Part shown: positions 20,676-42,586 of the stretch, piece by piece | Numbering within the stretch: the first letter of the stretch is position 1 | How the letters are laid out: every line of letters starts with the position of its first letter | Source of the DNA: Escherichia phage vB_EcoS_ACG-M12 | Reading direction: 5' to 3' (one strand) | Length of the DNA: 46,054 nt | Sequence record: NC_019404.1 | Position numbers and translations under genes: made by a program | The notes under the pieces: generated by a model | The model's database searches: none | Told to the model about the DNA's origin: nothing | What the model saw: the letters and a program-made list of their open reading frames with translations, nothing else

Positions 20676-20724
20676 TTAGTGTAGAATGGCACAAATGATC
20701 AAAACAAACATGAGGCTTTGTGAT

Positions 20725-23700
20725 ATGGCTGAAGAGATTAAGATTTATGGTGCTAAGGGTGGTAGCCAGAAGCAGCACCAACCAGTGGAACAAGAAGACA
20801 ACCTGATTTCATTAAACAAGGTTAAGGTATTACTTGCGGTTGCTGACGGCGAGGTGGATCCAAACTTCTCAATGAAGGATTTATACCTTGCTGACGTTCC
20901 GGTGCAAAACCAGGATGGCAGCTACAACTACGAGGGTGTTCGCGCTGAGTTCCGTGCTGGTACGCAGTATCAGGACTATATCGCTGGCCTTGATGGTGCT
21001 AACTCAGAGATTCAGGCTTCCAGGGAAATCACAAACGACACCCCGTACATCATTGCGGTTAACAATAACCAGCTATCGGCAATTAGAGTCAAACTTTTTT
21101 GGCCTCGGTTGGTTAAGCAAGAAAGTAACGGGGACCTGAACGGAACAACCTGCGAGTATGCGATTGACCTTTCCGTTAATGGTGGAGCATATCAGGAATA
21201 CACTCGCGGAGTTGCTAACGGGAAGACCACTACAGGTTACGACCGCAGCATTCGCGTGAACCTTCCTGCAGAGTTTGATAGCGCATTGGTTCGCATCCGT
21301 AAGATTACAGCAGATTCAACAAGTAGCACGCTGGTTAACGGAATGCAGATTACAACCTATCAGGAAGTAATCGACGCTAAATTCCGCTATCCGCTTACGG
21401 CACTTGTTTATGTTGAGTTCGGCTCTGACTTGTTCCCTAACGGCATCCCGACAATCTCAATCAAGAAGCGATGGAAGTTAATTCAGGTCCCAACGAACTA
21501 TGATCCTGAGACTAGAACCTACAGCGGCACGTGGAATGGACTGTTCAAGATGGCATGTTCAAACAACCCGGCGTGGGTTCTCTATGACTTAGTGACAAAC
21601 CGCCGATATGGTCTTGATCAGCGAGAGCTTGGTGTAGGGATTGATAAATGGGGACTGTATGAAGCTGCGCAATTCTGCGACCAGATGGTGCCGGATGGTA
21701 AGGGTGGAATGGAACCGCGATATCTATGCGACATGGTTGTACAGAACAAGGTTGAGGCCTACACACTAATTCGTGACATTTGCTCAATCTTTCGTGGACT
21801 GACTTTCTATGATGGCGAAAAGATTGGTATCGTGGTTGATAAGCCTCGCAATCCATCTTACATCTTCACTAATGATAACGTTGTAAACGGATTATTCAGC
21901 CGCACTTTTGCCAGCGATAAAAGCCTTTACACTACGGCAAACGTTCAGTTTGATGATGTGGAGAACAACTATCAGCAGGATGTTGAGCCAGTATTTGAGC
22001 TCGAGGCTACTCGCCGATTTGGTTTTAACCCGGTCGACCTAACGGCAATTGGATGTACGCGAAGAAGTGAAGCAAACAGACGCGGAAGATGGCTACTGAA
22101 AACCAACCTGAGAAGCGAAACTATCAGCTTCACTACCGGGTTGGAAGGCATGATTCCGATGATTGGTGAGGTTATTGCGGTTAATGACGCTGCATGGTCG
22201 AGCAACTACCAGTTAAACCTTTCCGGTCGTATTGAATCAGTTCAGGGATTGCAGGTTTTCACCCCGTTCAAAGTTGACGCGGCACCGGGTGACAGAATTC
22301 TTCTGAACAAGCCTGACGGAAGCCCGGAAGCAAGAACTATCGCCAGCGTTTCGGAAGATGGTAGAACTATCAACCTGAATACTGCTTTTAGTTTTGTAGC
22401 TCAGCCTGACACTGTATTCGCAATCGATAAGGATAATCTGGCGCTTCAGCAGTATGTTGTGACCGGGATTCAAAAAGCAGATTCTGATGGTTCGGATTCA
22501 TTCCAGTATACGATTACCGCGGTGGAGTATGACCCGAACAAGTATGACGAGATTGACTACGGCGTTAACATTGTTGACCGTCCAACTTCAATTGTGGAAC
22601 CTGACAGATTATCGCCACCAGAAAACCTGACCGTGTCAAGTTATAGTAAGGTTGTTCAGGGCTTGTCGGTTGAGACGATGGTTATCGGATGGGATAAGGC
22701 TCCATACGCTAAAACCTACAATGTTCAATGGAGGAAAGAAAATGGTAACTGGATTAACGTACCCAGAACAGCAAGTACAGATGTTGATATCGAAGGTATT
22801 TACGCAGGAATCTATGACGTTAGGGTTCGCAGCGTATCAGATACTGAAAACGTGTCTGCCTGGTCTGACATTGTAACTGTATCACTAACTGGCAAGATTG
22901 GACGTCCTTCGGCACCTACGGTTATCACGGCGTCAACTGATGAGGTATTTGGCATCCGTGTTAAATGGGGATTCCCTGATAGCTCTGGTGATACTGCTTA
23001 CACTGAGCTTCAGCAGGTTCCTGATAATGGCGATGGTACTTACAATCCTGATAACGCAAGCTTGCTGACGTTGCTGCCTTATCCAGCCTATGAATACTGG
23101 CATACGCCTATTCAGCCAGGTAAGGTTATCTGGTATCGCGCAAGATTGATTGACAGGATCGGAAACACCTCTGATTGGTCTGATTTCGCTAGAGGCATGA
23201 GTACTGACGACGCCAACATTATCAATGATTACATCAAGGTTGATATAGAGGGTTCGGAAGGATTCAAATACCTCGAGCAGAATGCGATTCAAAAGAATCA
23301 TGACATTCAGAATCAGGCAGAGTCAATTCTTGAGAATGCATTAGCTAATGATGCCGATGTTCGCCGGATGACCAAGGAGAACGGCAAACGTAAGGCTGAA
23401 TATGTTCAGACGGTGAATCTCATAGCCGATGAAACTCAGGCACGCGTAGAGGCTCTCACCGCACTTAAAGCGCAGATAGATGATGAAGTTGTAGCATCGA
23501 TTACGAAAGTTCAGACAGCGCTAGCTACCGAGACAGAAGCAAGGACCACCGCAGACACGGCTCTATCAGCAAGACTCGGTGATAACGAGGCGGCGATAAA
23601 CCAGAAATTAGACGCATTTTCCAATGCCACCTCAACTGGCGTGCAGTACGGAATTAGTCTTGGCCTGAAATACAATGGTCAGACTTATTCATCCGGCATG

Positions 23701-24111
23701 AGCATGGAGCTCGTTGGCACTGGTGATAACGTTCGTAGTCAATTCATTTTTGACGCAAACAGGTTTGCGATCAGTAACGGCATCGGTTCTGGCTCCGGTC
23801 AGTGGCAACTACCCTTCGTTGTCGAGAACGGAAACGTAATAATCCAGAGCGCAGTAATCGGAGATGGCTCAATCACTAACGCGAAGATTGGCAATAGGAT
23901 CCAATCTAATAACTACGTTGCTGGATCTCAAGGTTGGGCGATTGATAAGTCAGGAAGTGCAGAGCTAAGTAACGCCACTGTAAGGGGTAATCTTTACGCT
24001 AACAATGGCAACTTCGCATTTAACGGAACCAATAACACGGTTCAGATTAACAATAACGGAATCACTGTAAACTTACCTAACGGAGGAAGAGTGGTAGTTG
24101 GAGTGTGGTAA
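20725..24111 (+). CDS. central tail fibre/host specificity protein, lambda J-like (about 1128 aa)
   Basis: Size, position after the I-like gene, fibronectin-like middle and Gly/Asn-rich C-terminus; start at the ATG after GAGG (alternative ATG at 20686). Confidence 0.75.
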   Translation: MAEEIKIYGAKGGSQKQHQPVEQEDNLISLNKVKVLLAVADGEVDPNFSMKDLYLADVPVQNQDGSYNYEGVRAEFRAGTQYQDYIAGLDGANSEIQASREITNDTPYIIAVNNNQLSAIRVKLFWPRLVKQESNGDLNGTTCEYAIDLSVNGGAYQEYTRGVANGKTTTGYDRSIRVNLPAEFDSALVRIRKITADSTSSTLVNGMQITTYQEVIDAKFRYPLTALVYVEFGSDLFPNGIPTISIKKRWKLIQVPTNYDPETRTYSGTWNGLFKMACSNNPAWVLYDLVTNRRYGLDQRELGVGIDKWGLYEAAQFCDQMVPDGKGGMEPRYLCDMVVQNKVEAYTLIRDICSIFRGLTFYDGEKIGIVVDKPRNPSYIFTNDNVVNGLFSRTFASDKSLYTTANVQFDDVENNYQQDVEPVFELEATRRFGFNPVDLTAIGCTRRSEANRRGRWLLKTNLRSETISFTTGLEGMIPMIGEVIAVNDAAWSSNYQLNLSGRIESVQGLQVFTPFKVDAAPGDRILLNKPDGSPEARTIASVSEDGRTINLNTAFSFVAQPDTVFAIDKDNLALQQYVVTGIQKADSDGSDSFQYTITAVEYDPNKYDEIDYGVNIVDRPTSIVEPDRLSPPENLTVSSYSKVVQGLSVETMVIGWDKAPYAKTYNVQWRKENGNWINVPRTASTDVDIEGIYAGIYDVRVRSVSDTENVSAWSDIVTVSLTGKIGRPSAPTVITASTDEVFGIRVKWGFPDSSGDTAYTELQQVPDNGDGTYNPDNASLLTLLPYPAYEYWHTPIQPGKVIWYRARLIDRIGNTSDWSDFARGMSTDDANIINDYIKVDIEGSEGFKYLEQNAIQKNHDIQNQAESILENALANDADVRRMTKENGKRKAEYVQTVNLIADETQARVEALTALKAQIDDEVVASITKVQTALATETEARTTADTALSARLGDNEAAINQKLDAFSNATSTGVQYGISLGLKYNGQTYSSGMSMELVGTGDNVRSQFIFDANRFAISNGIGSGSGQWQLPFVVENGNVIIQSAVIGDGSITNAKIGNRIQSNNYVAGSQGWAIDKSGSAELSNATVRGNLYANNGNFAFNGTNNTVQINNNGITVNLPNGGRVVVGVW

Positions 24112-24114
24112 TAA

Positions 24115-24144
24115 ATAAAGCCCCTTAATTGGGGCTTTTCTTTT
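24115..24144. terminator. bidirectional terminator between convergent genes
   Basis: AGCCCC-ttaatt-GGGGCT flanked by an A-run and a T-run. Confidence 0.65.
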
Positions 24145-25105
24145 AGTAGAAGCTTGGAATAAATGGAAGTGCCATTGATATATTTGTGTCGAAAGGGAAC
24201 TGAGCGCCAGTCTGAGTTGAATAGTTACCTATTACAGAGCCAGGAACAGCCCTAACAGAGCCTCCAGACATGCAAACGCCCTTGTATCGCAAGTTGTTAT
24301 ATCCTCCAGTAACTCTAGTCGTAGCGCCACATCTAAGAATAGGGAAGAATCCACCATTTATTGACTGATATCCATTGCTTATTTGTATAAATCCACTAAG
24401 TACGAATGGTCGCCTAACGCTTGAAAAAACAATCTGACCAGAGCTATTTGACATTGTTAGTCCTGGTCCGGCTGGTGGGGGTTCATTTCTGAATATCACC
24501 AGCTGAACATAAGTACTTGCCGAAACATCATCTGTACCTCCGTAGGTTATATCCCTGCACCATATTGTTGATCCATCTGATTCAAGTGATACGTTTGGAT
24601 TATCCCACTTGCCGAATGGTATGCCGCTAACTGGTAGCGATGCCGCCCCGTTAACCTGTATGCCTCCAACCCATGCTGCTGACATTAGTCTCGAGTTGCT
24701 TGATATAGCAAGGAAATCAGTTGAGTTCTCAACGAGTATCCCTGGGCTTGATGAAGGTGATGCTGGTAGAATTTCAAAACAATTACCCGCAAAGTCAATT
24801 ATTCGACCATTGGCACCATTGAAGTTACTAAGTGTTATCCTGCCAACTCCGTCATTAACCTTTTGGAATCCGTTCATGTAATAAACTTCAGGTATAACAT
24901 CGTAAGCATCAACGTGGACTGCCTTCGTTGGTAGGCAGAAAGCCGTAGAGCCAGGAGACATTGTCAATCCAAAATCCCACGAACTTGCTGGGGTTGAAAG
25001 TCCATTGGTATTTATTGATCCAGTCACAGCAGGTGCCCTTAATCCTGCCGTTATTTCCATCGCTGGTCTTCCGTCATTGAGGTCAATCAATATACCCTGC
25101 GGCAT
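24143..25105 (-). CDS. beta-rich Gly/Ser/Asn-rich protein (320 aa), possibly receptor-binding or tail-associated
   Basis: Composition only; last gene of the minus operon; start at the ATG after AAGGAG. Confidence 0.35.
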   Translation of the reverse strand: MPQGILIDLNDGRPAMEITAGLRAPAVTGSINTNGLSTPASSWDFGLTMSPGSTAFCLPTKAVHVDAYDVIPEVYYMNGFQKVNDGVGRITLSNFNGANGRIIDFAGNCFEILPASPSSSPGILVENSTDFLAISSNSRLMSAAWVGGIQVNGAASLPVSGIPFGKWDNPNVSLESDGSTIWCRDITYGGTDDVSASTYVQLVIFRNEPPPAGPGLTMSNSSGQIVFSSVRRPFVLSGFIQISNGYQSINGGFFPILRCGATTRVTGGYNNLRYKGVCMSGGSVRAVPGSVIGNYSTQTGAQFPFDTNISMALPFIPSFY

Positions 25106-25356
25106 TATTTCCACTCCTTGCTGCCATGATCTGCAATAGAGCCACCGTAACCGCCGCCAGCCTTGCTTTCAATTCCGGCGTAGCGAACATCAACCTCACC
25201 AGCCGGAACAACTACGCCACCTTTCCATTTAGCTACGCACACACCATTTGCTTGTGTTGCACACCAACCATCCGGGCGAGGACCAGATGAGCAACCTACC
25301 ATCATGATTGCTGCTGCGGCGATGATTGAAAGTTTGATTAATTTAGTCATTTTCAT
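25105..25356 (-). CDS. lipoprotein (83 aa), Cor-like superinfection-exclusion candidate
   Basis: Signal peptide with lipobox MMVGC|SS; small size; located next to the tail fibre genes as cor is in T1/phi80-type phages (from memory). Confidence 0.45.
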
Positions 25357-37985: not shown

Positions 37986-39122
37986 ATGGCAACTGCAAAA
38001 ATTACCAACGAACAGCTTCTTGAAGAGCTGATTAACGGCATGACCAACAAGGCCATTGCAGAGAAGTACGGAATGAACATTCGCAATGTTGAGTTGCGTC
38101 GCAGTAAATTGGCGAAGCAGGGTGAATGGCATGGAAACCCAGGCATCAAGAAGCTAGTTCCTGACGGTTATTTGGTCAAAGGCACATCAACGATGATTGA
38201 TGCCGAAGGTAACGAAAAGCTGCGCTGGGTTAAAACATCCGTAGATAATGAGCGCCTTGAGGTTTTAATGGAGCAAGCCCGAGAAGCATTCTGCTCTGAT
38301 TTGCCAAAGGCTATTCCATCTGAATCACCGAATGTTAACTTTGATGACAACACGCTTGCGATGTATCCAGTCTTTGACTTGCACATTGGAGCAATGGCTC
38401 ACAAACATGAGTGTGGCGAAAACTACGACACAGAAACAGCAGAGAAGGTTATGAATGGTTTCTTTGACTACGCTGTAGATAAGGCTCCGAACTCAAAGAA
38501 TGCCGTGCTTGTTCTTGGTGGTGATTTCTTGCATTACGATTCATTAGAGGCAAAAACACCAGCGTCAGGCCATATCTTAGATTCTGACAGCCGTTACGCA
38601 AAGATTGTTTATGTCGCAATCCGTTCAGTGCGACGTGCAATTTCTAGAATGATGGAAAAGCATCAAGTTATTGATATTAAAGTAATAAGTGGAAACCACG
38701 ACGAGGCAGGGATGGTTTGGCTGCGCGCTGCGCTTGCTGCGTTTTATGAAGATGAACCGCGCGTAAATGTTGATGTTAGCCCAGCCGCAATGATGATGAC
38801 CAGCTTTGGAACTACGCTTATTGGATACACCCACGGGCATCAAATGCGAAAAGCAGATACGCGACTAACTGTTATGGCAACCGATTTTCGTAAGTTATTT
38901 GGTCAAAGTGAGTATGTTTACACACATAGTGGCCACTGGCATTCGCAGAAGATTACAGAAACAAACTTGGGTATTGATGAGGTTCATGGGCAGCTTGGAA
39001 GCCCTGACGCGTACTCAGCAAATGGCGGATGGCGCTCTCAACGTCAAGCGGCGGTTATTGTCTACCATAAAGAATTCGGTGAAGTTGGCCGCTTCATTTG
39101 TCGCCCTAAAATGTTTGGATAA
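37986..39122 (+). CDS. metallophosphoesterase (calcineurin-like) with N-terminal HTH-like domain (378 aa)
   Basis: DLHIG (DxH), GGDFLHYD (GDxxD), GNHDE (GNHD/E), later HGH and GHWH motifs; N-terminal NKAIAEKYGMNIRNVELRR helix-turn-helix-like. Confidence 0.6.
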   Translation: MATAKITNEQLLEELINGMTNKAIAEKYGMNIRNVELRRSKLAKQGEWHGNPGIKKLVPDGYLVKGTSTMIDAEGNEKLRWVKTSVDNERLEVLMEQAREAFCSDLPKAIPSESPNVNFDDNTLAMYPVFDLHIGAMAHKHECGENYDTETAEKVMNGFFDYAVDKAPNSKNAVLVLGGDFLHYDSLEAKTPASGHILDSDSRYAKIVYVAIRSVRRAISRMMEKHQVIDIKVISGNHDEAGMVWLRAALAAFYEDEPRVNVDVSPAAMMMTSFGTTLIGYTHGHQMRKADTRLTVMATDFRKLFGQSEYVYTHSGHWHSQKITETNLGIDEVHGQLGSPDAYSANGGWRSQRQAAVIVYHKEFGEVGRFICRPKMFG

Positions 39123-39193: not shown

Positions 39194-39688
39194 ATGGATT
39201 GGAATGATTTTCTTGAGTATAGAGATGGCAGGCTTTACTGGACTGACCCGCATTCAACAAAACTCAAGCCAGGTGATGAGGCTGGCAGCAGGCACCATAT
39301 GGGTTATTGGTACATTCGCAGATATGACAAAACAATGTCAAGGCACAGAATCGTATGGGAGATGCACAACGGACCAATACCAGAAGGCATGGAGATAGAT
39401 CATATAAATCACGCCCCTGGTGATGACAGGATTGAAAACCTAAGAATGGTCACAAGAAGGCAAAACAATCAAAACAAGAAATTAGATGGAAGAAATACAA
39501 GCGGACACGTCGGGGTCAGCTTGAACAAGAAGACAAACAAATGGAGAGCAATGATAGGCATAAAGGGAGAGGACGGAAAGAGGAAAACTCTATACGTTTA
39601 CTATGGTGATTCTTTCGATGACGCAGTGTCAGCAAGAAAGAGAGCTGAGGTTGAGTACTCATTTCACGAAAATCACGGAAGAAGCTAG
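39194..39688 (+). CDS. HNH homing endonuclease with AP2-like domain (164 aa), paralogue of gene 17224
   Basis: MDWNDFLEYRDGRLYW ... HRIVWEMHNG ... IDHINH ... RIENLR; clear paralogy with the 17224 protein. Confidence 0.75.
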   Translation: MDWNDFLEYRDGRLYWTDPHSTKLKPGDEAGSRHHMGYWYIRRYDKTMSRHRIVWEMHNGPIPEGMEIDHINHAPGDDRIENLRMVTRRQNNQNKKLDGRNTSGHVGVSLNKKTNKWRAMIGIKGEDGKRKTLYVYYGDSFDDAVSARKRAEVEYSFHENHGRS

Positions 39689-40863: not shown

Positions 40864-41040
40864 ATGACTAAAATGATTTATTGCACCAAGAACAACTCCA
40901 AGACGCTTCCATTTACAGTTAACCAGCCGTACAATGCAGAGTATCAGGGTGACGGATATTACAAGATTTACGGAGACGATATGACGTGGATTTTAGCACC
41001 GATTGATGGTTCGCTTGTTGAATTTATTATCGCAGAATAG
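40864..41040 (+). CDS. hypothetical small protein (58 aa) with YQGDGYY motif
   Basis: In-frame ATG after ACGAGGAAACACAAG; paralogous motif with gene 37013. Confidence 0.4.
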   Translation: MTKMIYCTKNNSKTLPFTVNQPYNAEYQGDGYYKIYGDDMTWILAPIDGSLVEFIIAE

Positions 41041-41065: not shown

Positions 41066-41093
41066 TGGGGGCCTTTTGGCTCCCTTTTTTTTG
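41066..41093 (+). terminator. rho-independent terminator
   Basis: Imperfect GC hairpin GGGGGCC...GGCTCCC followed by a T8 run. Confidence 0.55.
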
Positions 41094-41169
41094 CTTCTTT
41101 TCCGAACAGGGCTACTGTATCATGTTTACACTAACTTAAACATTGACAAATAGACAAATGGAGGATCAC

Positions 41170-41385
41170 ATGAGGGAAGTAATCAACGCCGCTACGGCGT
41201 CAACTGGAGGGGCAGCGGTAACTGGAGCGGCAACTGGTCAGATGACTATAGCAATAATCAGCCTTATCGCTTTAATCATTTTTGGTGCGTGGGGTGCTTA
41301 CTGGAAGTTTAAGGATAGCCAGGCGATTCGGCGCGCTCTTGAATCAGGAGACTTAAAAACAGCAATCAAGATAAGGAGTAAGTAA
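41170..41385 (+). CDS. holin candidate (71 aa)
   Basis: Single transmembrane helix IAIISLIALIIFGAWGAYW; charged C-terminus; immediately upstream of the endolysin; start at the ATG after GGAGG. Confidence 0.55.
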   Translation: MREVINAATASTGGAAVTGAATGQMTIAIISLIALIIFGAWGAYWKFKDSQAIRRALESGDLKTAIKIRSK

Positions 41386-41871
41386 ATGAAGCAGAAGCTG
41401 CTAATTAGCGCGGCTACGGCTACGGCAATATACATCGCAGCACCGCTTATTGAGCTCGTAGAGGGTGTGGAAAACAAGCCTTACATGGACATTGCTGGAA
41501 TCCCTACTGTTTGCTCTGGCGTTACTGGCCCTGACGTTGTTTGGGGTAAGACCTACAGCAACAGGGAATGCCGGAACTTACTGGAGAAGCACATTCAGAT
41601 TCATGCCAGGCATGTTCAGAATGCAGTTACCTACCCAATCGCACCTCAGACAAGAGCGGCTTTAATCAGCTTTAGCTACAACGTTGGTGGAAATGCGATG
41701 AGGAATTCAACGGCAGTTCGACTTATTAATCAGGGTAAAGTTGAGCAGGGTTGCAATGCTCTCGGGATGTGGAATAAGGCTCGGGTTAACGGAAAGCTAA
41801 AGGTAGTTAAAGGCCTGGTTAACAGGAGAAACGAGGAGATTAAGTTATGCTTAAGTGGATTGCAGCGTTAG
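41386..41871 (+). CDS. endolysin, GH24 lysozyme family (161 aa)
   Basis: Catalytic arrangement E-x8-D-x5-T (LVEGVENKPYMDIAGIPT), as in the P22 gp19/T4 e lysozyme family; N-terminal hydrophobic segment. Confidence 0.75.
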   Translation: MKQKLLISAATATAIYIAAPLIELVEGVENKPYMDIAGIPTVCSGVTGPDVVWGKTYSNRECRNLLEKHIQIHARHVQNAVTYPIAPQTRAALISFSYNVGGNAMRNSTAVRLINQGKVEQGCNALGMWNKARVNGKLKVVKGLVNRRNEEIKLCLSGLQR

Positions 41872-42236
41872 TAATGTGCATGGCTTTATCTGGATGCTCA
41901 GCAACTGAAGTCCTGACCGGATTGATTGGAAGTAAACCAGATGTCACTGCGCAGGTTGGAGCGGCTAACAATAAAGTCGGCGTTGGTGCTTCCGTTAGTA
42001 GCGACTCCAGCAATTCCAGTGAAGCCACTGTAAGGGATTCTAAGGTTGGGAGCCTGGATAGCTCAAGCAGAAAAAAGACCTCCGACAATTCAATTAAGGC
42101 ATCAACAATCACTGCCGAAAAGATTGAGATTACAAACAATGAATCATCATCACTACCGTGGATTGGTACTGGCGTTATGTTCTGCCTGGTTCTTATTCTT
42201 CTGGCAATTATCTTAAGACGTAAAAAAGCCCCTTAA
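41847..42236 (+). CDS. unimolecular spanin-like lipoprotein (129 aa)
   Basis: Lipobox ALSGC|S at the N-terminus plus C-terminal transmembrane helix LPWIGTGVMFCLVLILLAIIL; overlaps the endolysin 3' end, as for the T1 gp11-type u-spanin (from memory). Confidence 0.6.
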   Translation: MLKWIAALVMCMALSGCSATEVLTGLIGSKPDVTAQVGAANNKVGVGASVSSDSSNSSEATVRDSKVGSLDSSSRKKTSDNSIKASTITAEKIEITNNESSSLPWIGTGVMFCLVLILLAIILRRKKAP

Positions 42237-42251
42237 TAGGGGCTATATTTT
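42221..42251. terminator. bidirectional terminator between convergent genes
   Basis: AGCCCC-ttaata-GGGGCT flanked by A- and T-rich runs; overlaps the spanin stop. Confidence 0.55.
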
Positions 42252-42586
42252 TAGCTAAATAACTCGTCGTCAGTCATGTTTCCTATGTTCATCATTTCCT
42301 TTATGTACTTACTATCATAACCGTTCAGTGCTTCGAAGTTAAACTCAAAAGGCCTCTTCAAACTCCCTCTACTAACAAACTCACCACACTTACCATCAAT
42401 ATATCCTGAGCTTAACATCTTTGCGCAGAACTCCTTTGAAGCTGCACTGCAAAACTTCCGATGTGGCAAACCTGCCGCCTTGCTAAACCTCTCTGAATCT
42501 TTGTGCTTGTATATGAATCGCGCCAAATGCTGGCGCGTAAAATAACTGTAGGACTCGCAAAATCTGTATAAATCAAGAAGAAACAT
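42251..42586 (-). CDS. hypothetical protein (111 aa)
   Basis: ATG start; directly downstream of the DUF3987-like gene on the minus strand. Confidence 0.45.
   Translation of the reverse strand: MFLLDLYRFCESYSYFTRQHLARFIYKHKDSERFSKAAGLPHRKFCSAASKEFCAKMLSSGYIDGKCGEFVSRGSLKRPFEFNFEALNGYDSKYIKEMMNIGNMTDDELFS

Follow-up and report, generated by a model that had tools for sequence, protein, structure and literature searches.

Escherichia phage vB_EcoS_ACG-M12 probably carries a T1-type lysis cassette with a predicted unimolecular spanin

The DNA analysed here (the window) is a stretch of 46,054 nucleotides from Escherichia phage vB_EcoS_ACG-M12 (NC_019404.1), and its putative lysis genes lie together at 41170-42236. 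Three closely packed open reading frames (ORFs) are found there on the plus strand, each with its own Shine-Dalgarno site, namely a holin gene of 71 codons (41170-41385), an endolysin gene of 161 codons (41386-41871) and a spanin gene of 129 codons (41847-42236). An earlier note on this DNA had described a holin-endolysin pair followed by a third protein, and the three ORFs have exactly the coordinates given in it. The holin gene is preceded by GGAGG at 41160-41164, 5 nt 5' of its ATG. The ATG of the endolysin gene, with AAGGAG at 41373-41378, comes immediately after the holin stop codon, and the start of the spanin gene, with GAGGAG at 41833-41838, 8 nt upstream of its ATG, overlaps the 3' end of the endolysin gene by 25 nt. 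Judged by homology, gene order, signal features, a catalytic motif and its boundaries, the complete module, a block of 1.07 kb, is very likely a lysis cassette of the T1 type within the Drexlerviridae, composed of a holin, an endolysin of the signal-anchor-release (SAR) type and a unimolecular spanin (u-spanin).

A megablast search with 41100-42300 returned vB_EcoS_SCS31 (ON081052.1) at 100% identity and the same coordinates, a phage classified in the Drexlerviridae, Braunvirinae, Guelphvirus, followed by ECH1 (99.4%), SU57 (91.7%) and about 80 other Rtp-like phages (82-87%). In T1 (NC_005833) the lysis genes run in the order ST13 (holin), ST12 (endolysin) and ST11 (spanin), followed by a terminator, and the cassette of the window is homologous to gp13/gp12/gp11 and has the same order. 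The holin shares 58% identity with T1 gp13 over its full length (E 8e-32), the endolysin 45% with T1 gp12 (E 7e-45) and the spanin 37% with T1 gp11 over 123 residues (E 5e-24). The spanin is also 81% identical to its Rtp orthologue, when the latter is read from an upstream ATG, and 40-48% identical to many intermediate members of the T1gp11 family. T1 gp11 had reportedly been treated as the prototype unimolecular spanin by Summer et al. in 2007 as well. A u-spanin combines an N-terminal lipoylation signal with a C-terminal transmembrane domain (TMD), and T1 gp11 is the prototype (Kongari et al., 2018, PMC6139136). On its own, T1 gene 11 complements the lysis defect of lambda RzRz1, for which its LSGC lipobox is needed, with an AWAS variant as the control (PMC6139136). 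RTP and ACG-M12 are among the 28 members of the published T1gp11 family (PMC6139136, Table 5), which was delimited by clustering at 40% identity over 40% of the length; by this homology criterion the spanin of the window belongs to the family, Rtp being a listed member.

The spanin matches PHROG 1804 'Rz-like spanin' (E 7e-48). Its N-terminus is a lipoprotein signal peptide, MLKWIAALVMCMALSGC (41847-41897, plus strand), recognised by a strict lipobox match, in which a basic and then hydrophobic signal precedes the lipobox LSGC (L14-S-G-C17, 41886-41897; Cys17 at 41895-41897). This is the only strict lipobox in any frame of the spanin region. The residues at +2/+3 are Ser-Ala, and since Ser rather than Asp occupies position +2, sorting to the outer membrane is expected; the protein would be acylated and placed in the outer membrane as a lipoprotein. 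At the other end, residues 105-123 form a predicted transmembrane helix, WIGTGVMFCLVLILLAIIL (42159-42215, plus strand; Kyte-Doolittle mean 2.74), which is followed by RRKKAP, on the cytoplasmic side by the positive-inside rule. No Cys is present in the periplasmic part, residues 18-103. Both of the elements that the earlier note had assigned to this single protein, the N-terminal lipobox and the C-terminal transmembrane helix, are therefore found, as LSGC/Cys17 and residues 105-123.

These features are strongly conserved and, with the PHROG 1804 and T1 gp11 matches, go beyond a chance occurrence. The lipobox Cys and the C-terminal TMD are kept in all 120 spanin homologues taken from the database, a canonical lipobox, mostly LSGC, is present in 111 of them, and among these 111 the +2/+3 residues are SA in 105 and a periplasmic Cys occurs in none. 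Likewise, no periplasmic cysteine was reported in 58 u-spanins (PMC6139136). Alignment A1, which contains 36 diverse sequences of the T1gp11 family down to 27% identity, has two conserved blocks, TAQxGAxNxK...G (Q36, G38, K43, G47) and ITAExI (A90), and Cys17 is invariant both in A1 and in alignment A3. With tblastn, the family was found in about 1,100 phage records, which include T1-like siphophages of Escherichia, Klebsiella, Shigella, Salmonella and Citrobacter as well as KP34-like Klebsiella podophages, and this spread over siphophages and podophages is consistent with the published family list.

Monomer AlphaFold2 models were computed for the spanin and, as a control, for T1 gp11, with alignments of 36-38 sequences. 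The spanin model (alignment A1) has a pLDDT (predicted local distance difference test score) of 55, with helices at residues 2-15 (the signal peptide), 19-26 and 103-126 (the TMD), the last of which has the highest local confidence. The T1 gp11 model, made with a comparable alignment, has a pLDDT of 55.9 and helices at residues 3-19, 25-28 and 105-131. In the published pattern, several beta strands come after a short helix in the periplasmic domain (PMC6139136). In the spanin model the short helix (residues 19-26) is seen and the beta strands are not modelled, and the model of the prototype T1 gp11 behaves alike.

The endolysin matches Pfam PF00959 Phage_lysozyme (E 1.4e-35), the GH24 family of T4-lysozyme-like muramidases, and PHROG 7 endolysin (E 1.3e-48), and its best matches in the PDB are RrrD (4ZPU) and R21 of phage 21 (3HDE/3HDF), with E of about 1e-28. 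Its N-terminal hydrophobic segment, to which the earlier note had already drawn attention, is present at residues 5-22, LLISAATATAIYIAAPLI (41398-41451, plus strand). It has a Kyte-Doolittle mean of 1.95 with 9 of its 18 residues being G/A/S/T, it is preceded by K2 and K4, and it constitutes a putative SAR domain. The equivalent segment of T1 gp12 is VIGASIGAALTLTPTLL. The catalytic motif E26-x8-D35-x5-T41, EGVENKPYMDIAGIPT (41461-41508, plus strand), identified by regular expression, starts four residues past the hydrophobic segment, a layout that T1 gp12 shares, and it aligns with the R21 block EGVSYIPYKDIVGVWT. Thus R21 and RrrD resemble the endolysin of the window in their GH24 fold family, in the E-x8-D-x5-T triad and in the weakly hydrophobic N-terminal segment directly before the catalytic Glu, but the relationship is moderate at the E given above, and the putative SAR segment here is rich in Ala/Thr/Ile rather than Gly/Ala.

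In the literature, a SAR endolysin and a pinholin accompany the u-spanin in cassettes of the T1gp11 family (Kongari et al., 2018, PMC6139136), and the cassettes of TLS and T1 are likewise described as pinholin plus SAR endolysin (PMC11447400). In sibling phages, OzMSK among them, the equivalent gene is annotated 'SAR endolysin'. The SAR mode proposed in the earlier note as a possibility fits the nearest structures (R21/RrrD), the family literature and the sibling annotations, and the assignment to R21-type SAR endolysins is well supported as a prediction from sequence, while release from the membrane and activation would follow from the classification of the family in PMC6139136 and PMC11447400.

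The holin matches PHROG 2877 'holin' (E 3e-37), and its gene is labelled 'putative holin' in ON081052.1. Residues 4-23, VINAATASTGGAAVTGAATG (41179-41238, plus strand), with 16 of 20 residues being G/A/S/T, are very weakly hydrophobic (Kyte-Doolittle mean 0.84) and are a candidate for the SAR-like TMD1 of a class II pinholin. They are followed by the predicted main transmembrane helix, residues 25-45, MTIAIISLIALIIFGAWGAYW (41242-41304, plus strand), which contains the top 19-residue Kyte-Doolittle window (residues 25-43, mean 2.28), and by a highly charged tail, described as cytoplasmic. [quoted passage not shown] The annotations disagree, OzMSK having '2 transmembrane domains' and the T1 RefSeq record a single TMD. 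Partnered with an R21-type endolysin that bears an N-terminal hydrophobic segment, the holin of the window is probably a pinholin. It resembles S21-68, the pinholin of phage 21, in being small and adjoining a SAR-type endolysin; in addition, its main TMD comes after an N-terminal segment that is rich in Gly/Ala/Thr and weakly hydrophobic, and its C-terminal tail is charged. It differs in having no detectable sequence-family match, in the loop of just 1-2 residues that would join the two segments, and in the absence of a dual-start motif. A dual start of the antiholin kind was considered for the in-frame ATG at 41158 (MEDH-MREV...) and discarded, as this codon has no Shine-Dalgarno site and is absent from Rtp. 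A TatA-like holin was also discarded, with 14.7 bits for Pfam TatA_B_E, under the cut-off of 21.

According to a pattern scan, the lysis genes sit between two terminator hairpins. The upstream one, GGGGGCC-TTTT-GGCTCCC with a T-run (41067-41092, plus strand), closes the small gene before it (40864-41040) and forms the upstream boundary of the lysis unit, and it is kept in SU57 and Rtp. The downstream one, AGCCCCTTAATAGGGGCT (42227-42244), has T-runs on both strands and is a predicted intrinsic terminator that would act in both directions, separating the lysis cassette from the convergent minus-strand genes that occupy 42251-42586 and onward; in SU57 and T1 a terminator is annotated at this site. 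Between the upstream hairpin and the holin gene, the sole promoter-like element is a conserved -10-like TATCAT at 41118-41123 (TAAAAT in T1), with a poor -35. In OzMSK (PQ659294, 470-739) the holin is annotated with 89 residues, its start being an ATG further upstream, within the range of which lies part of the conserved TATCAT element, so that the two overlap. Such an extension is closed in the window by an in-frame TAA at 41137-41139, and the conserved holin is therefore the 71-residue form.

Could the 129-residue lipoprotein be an outer-membrane spanin (o-spanin), with an inner-membrane partner (i-spanin) encoded elsewhere, whether embedded, overlapping or separate? It has an outer-membrane lipoprotein signal, as every o-spanin has, and it weakly matches the NCBIfam model NF037952 'bacteriophage spanin2 family protein', at 22 bits versus a cut-off of 80. 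However, it also has a strong C-terminal TMD of its own, which all 120 homologues keep, and T1 gp11 alone stands in for Rz and Rz1 together (PMC6139136). In addition, a six-frame translation of 41800-42260, and of the orthologues in SU57, Rtp, T1 and OzMSK, was inspected. In the window, no lipobox-bearing ORF occurs in any other frame of 41800-42260, in the plus-strand frames not even with a relaxed pattern, and no ORF with a TMD plus a coiled coil occurs in the other frames of the spanin gene. In the SU57, Rtp, T1 and OzMSK genes, relaxed lipobox matches in other frames are sporadic and non-conserved. Two candidates were rejected: a 56-residue ORF starting with TTG (42046-42216), whose 'LALC' has a forbidden Leu at -1 and lies 45 residues in, and a 99-residue antisense ORF (41840-42139), whose 'APTC' is far from the start, with no N-terminal signal and no conservation. 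Hence the separate overlapping o-spanin ORF with a lipobox inside 41847-42236, which the earlier note had named as what would refute its reading, is not found in the six-frame translation. Genome-wide, one other ORF with a lipoprotein signal was detected, at 25105-25356 on the minus strand (83 residues, lipobox MVGC, PHROG 4281 'unknown function'), and it adjoins a putative receptor-binding-protein gene and no lysis gene. We therefore reject the two-component alternative, and the o-spanin reading of the 129-residue protein is highly improbable. Another conceivable role is that of a non-lytic membrane lipoprotein, for example one for superinfection exclusion or receptor masking, whose gene merely follows the endolysin gene. 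Small exclusion lipoproteins do occur in T1-like phages, and ON081052.1 labels the spanin gene 'hypothetical protein'. Nevertheless, the protein is a homologue of T1 gp11, whose function has been tested, the start of its gene is translationally coupled to the endolysin gene by the 25-nt overlap, and its gene keeps the last place in the lysis cassette in more than 1,000 phage records. The lipoprotein gene at 25105-25356 is also better placed for exclusion, as it adjoins a 323-codon ORF (24143-25114, minus strand) directly downstream of a gpJ-like tail-tip gene (20686-24111, plus strand), and in Drexlerviridae the receptor-binding-protein locus is presumed to be where the cognate superinfection-exclusion proteins are encoded (PMC8594841). 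The product of 25105-25356 is probably a receptor-masking lipoprotein rather than a spanin, and we give almost no credence to such a role for the 129-residue protein. With the homology to T1 gp11, the same position in the cassette and no embedded or overlapping lipoprotein ORF, the u-spanin architecture proposed in the earlier note holds, and the predicted features of the third gene support its assignment to the unimolecular spanins of the T1gp11 family rather than to one half of a two-component pair.

The other two genes also have to be weighed against a different reading, in which the endolysin would be conventionally secreted with a cleavable Sec signal, or would need a large-hole holin, and the holin would be canonical and not a pinholin. 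The hydrophobicity of the endolysin segment is moderate (mean 1.95) and the segment contains A-x-A-like small-residue patterns (ATA-T, ATA-I), the T1 record gives the T1 holin a single TMD, and an experimental SAR test for this clade was not found in the literature examined. On the other hand, the A-x-A patterns lie just 5-9 residues into the hydrophobic stretch, which, judging from the sequence, would be too early for the h-region of a normal signal peptide. The catalytic Glu stands four residues past the segment, as it does in R21, the best PDB match, the enzymes of the T1 family are classed as SAR endolysins with pinholins (PMC6139136, PMC11447400), and curated sibling records use the term 'SAR endolysin'. 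A conventionally secreted enzyme or a canonical holin is thus unlikely, in our estimate. For the cassette of holin, SAR endolysin and u-spanin as a whole, several points nevertheless count on the negative side, and the pinholin assignment is its weakest link. For the putative TMD1, the Kyte-Doolittle mean is as low as 0.84, and 'single transmembrane domain' is given in the T1 RefSeq record. The holin has no match among the holin models of Pfam and NCBIfam, the sole family match being PHROG 2877 (the T1 gp13 group), so that by sequence it falls into no pinholin family of Pfam or NCBIfam. No consensus sigma-70 promoter scores above the scan threshold in 41093-41169, the stretch from the upstream terminator to the holin gene. 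Finally, residues 36-87 of the spanin are unmodelled by AlphaFold2 (pLDDT <50), with no confident periplasmic fold. A pLDDT below 50 over about residues 35-90, in the models of both the spanin and T1 gp11, fits folding that depends on oligomerisation, or a large amount of disorder.

The weak similarity to NF037952 (spanin2_3, a model of 98 positions with a cut-off of 80 bits) raises the question of the origin of the family. The spanin matches it at 22.4 bits (E 9.7e-5), and 25 of the 36 members of A1 match it as well, the best with E 2.1e-8 and all of them, distant representatives of the family included, under the 80-bit cut-off. In KP34/Peat1-like members the match takes in nearly all of the model and extends from the signal peptide over the entire periplasmic domain to the edge of the TMD, and the model is shorter than a u-spanin by about one TMD. 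T1 gp11 itself and T4 PseT.2/PseT.3 have no NF037952 match, and an alignment of A1 with the T4 o-spanin PseT.2 by hhalign paired the signal peptides only. A tblastn search of phages with a family member (P0150) at E<=1 returned u-spanin-type genes only, and tblastn against plasmids gave one mislabelled T1-like record. A profile search of a large protein database gave close relatives only, among the matches listed. Short homologues of 63-115 residues were considered as TMD-less o-spanins and proved to be frameshifted or truncated fragments of u-spanins. An origin of u-spanins by 'stop-codon loss plus gained TMD' was called speculative by Kongari et al. (2018, PMC6139136), with no such similarity detectable. 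If NF037952 was built from genuine TMD-less o-spanins with i-spanin partners, the match would connect u-spanins with o-spanins by sequence for the first time and would support that origin, while if it was built from trimmed u-spanins, the similarity means nothing. NF037952 may indeed be a trimmed model of other u-spanins, and on these sequence matches a shared ancestry of the T1gp11 family with an o-spanin-type lipoprotein family seems doubtful to us.

Compared with T1 gp11, the spanin of the window is likewise encoded by the last gene of a holin-endolysin-spanin cassette, and it has the LSGC lipobox, the C-terminal TMD, no periplasmic cysteine and both motifs, TAQxGAxNxK...G and ITAExI, in common with it. 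The differences are the length (133 residues in T1 versus 129 here), the mid-periplasmic domain, which is more serine-rich here (20 Ser in 86 residues), and the overlap of the spanin and endolysin genes, which is 1 nt in T1 and 25 nt here; moreover, the functional data belong to T1 gp11, while its orthologue here is known by sequence. Compared with lambda Rz/Rz1, the job would be the same, that is, to connect the inner membrane with the outer one through the murein and to disrupt the outer membrane after the peptidoglycan has been degraded. However, the spanin here is one polypeptide instead of two and has no embedded gene, and it lacks predicted coiled-coil helices, sequence similarity to Rz/Rz1 and periplasmic cysteines for disulfide-linked dimers.

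For the u-spanins of other Braunvirinae (Rtp rtp65, SU57, ECH1, OzMSK and JeanPiccard), the gene order and terminators are identical to those of the window, and the difference is one of annotation only. The gene product is labelled 'unimolecular spanin' in SU57, 'u-spanin' in JeanPiccard and OzMSK and 'Rz-like spanin' in ECH1 and the Rtp RefSeq record; among the siblings compared, 'hypothetical protein' is used only in the SCS31 record. It should be noted that Rtp rtp65 (AM156909, 1047-1436) and the DTL spanin are annotated from an internal Met, as proteins of 120 residues starting with MCVALSGC, which strips the basic n-region and most of the h-region from the lipoprotein signal. The upstream ATG in Rtp gives a protein of 129 residues that is collinear with the SCS31 spanin. 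Start-site errors of this kind in u-spanins were noted by Kongari et al. (2018, PMC6139136).

The order of events during lysis can be proposed from the literature on T1, phage 21 and lambda. Late in infection the three proteins would accumulate in the envelope, with the 71-residue holin in the inner membrane, and the GH24 endolysin, exported by Sec, would be kept tethered and inactive by its weakly hydrophobic N-terminal SAR segment. The 129-residue spanin would be lipoylated on Cys17 and sorted by Lol to the outer membrane in accordance with Ser at +2, while its C-terminal helix would stay in the inner membrane, so that one polypeptide, passing through the murein, would cross the periplasm. 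The holin would trigger at its programmed time, probably as a pinholin, and depolarise the membrane. The SAR segment would then exit the bilayer, and the endolysin would refold with E26/D35/T41 active and degrade the peptidoglycan. Once the murein mesh is lost, the u-spanin would be free to oligomerise or collapse, and it would draw the inner and outer membranes together and fuse them, which would destroy the outer membrane and let the virions out.

Some observations made along the way concern the rest of the genome and the database records. An HNH endonuclease gene (39194-39688, plus strand) lies between the gene at 37986-39122 and a polynucleotide kinase/phosphatase gene. At the corresponding place in SU57 no gene is present, the flanking genes being about 75 bp apart, and this suggests that the HNH gene is a free-standing homing-endonuclease insertion. 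T1-like lysis cassettes at 83-86% DNA identity were found in the records labelled Pseudomonas phage PsgS01F and Campylobacter phage A110b, and about 20 other 'Campylobacter' records also contain a T1-like lysis cassette or a u-spanin homologue. By tblastn, a u-spanin homologue with 47% protein identity is encoded in a 49.6-kb record labelled as a 'Paraclostridium bifermentans plasmid'. The host or replicon labels of the PsgS01F, 'Campylobacter' and Paraclostridium records are probably wrong, as a result of coliphage contamination or carry-over.

The arrangement of holin, SAR endolysin and u-spanin is already known, being the published norm for T1-like phages, and the same cassette occurs in deposited genomes by the hundreds, with close relatives already carrying the corresponding annotation. 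The window gives no new lead on the way in which, throughout the family, one beta-rich polypeptide free of cysteine would fuse two membranes. The practical value of the comparison is that the 'hypothetical protein' of SCS31 and the internal-Met starts of Rtp and DTL can be corrected to a u-spanin of the T1 gp11 family with 129 residues. For phage engineering and therapy, 41170-42236 should lyse the host via the route of pinholin, SAR endolysin and u-spanin.

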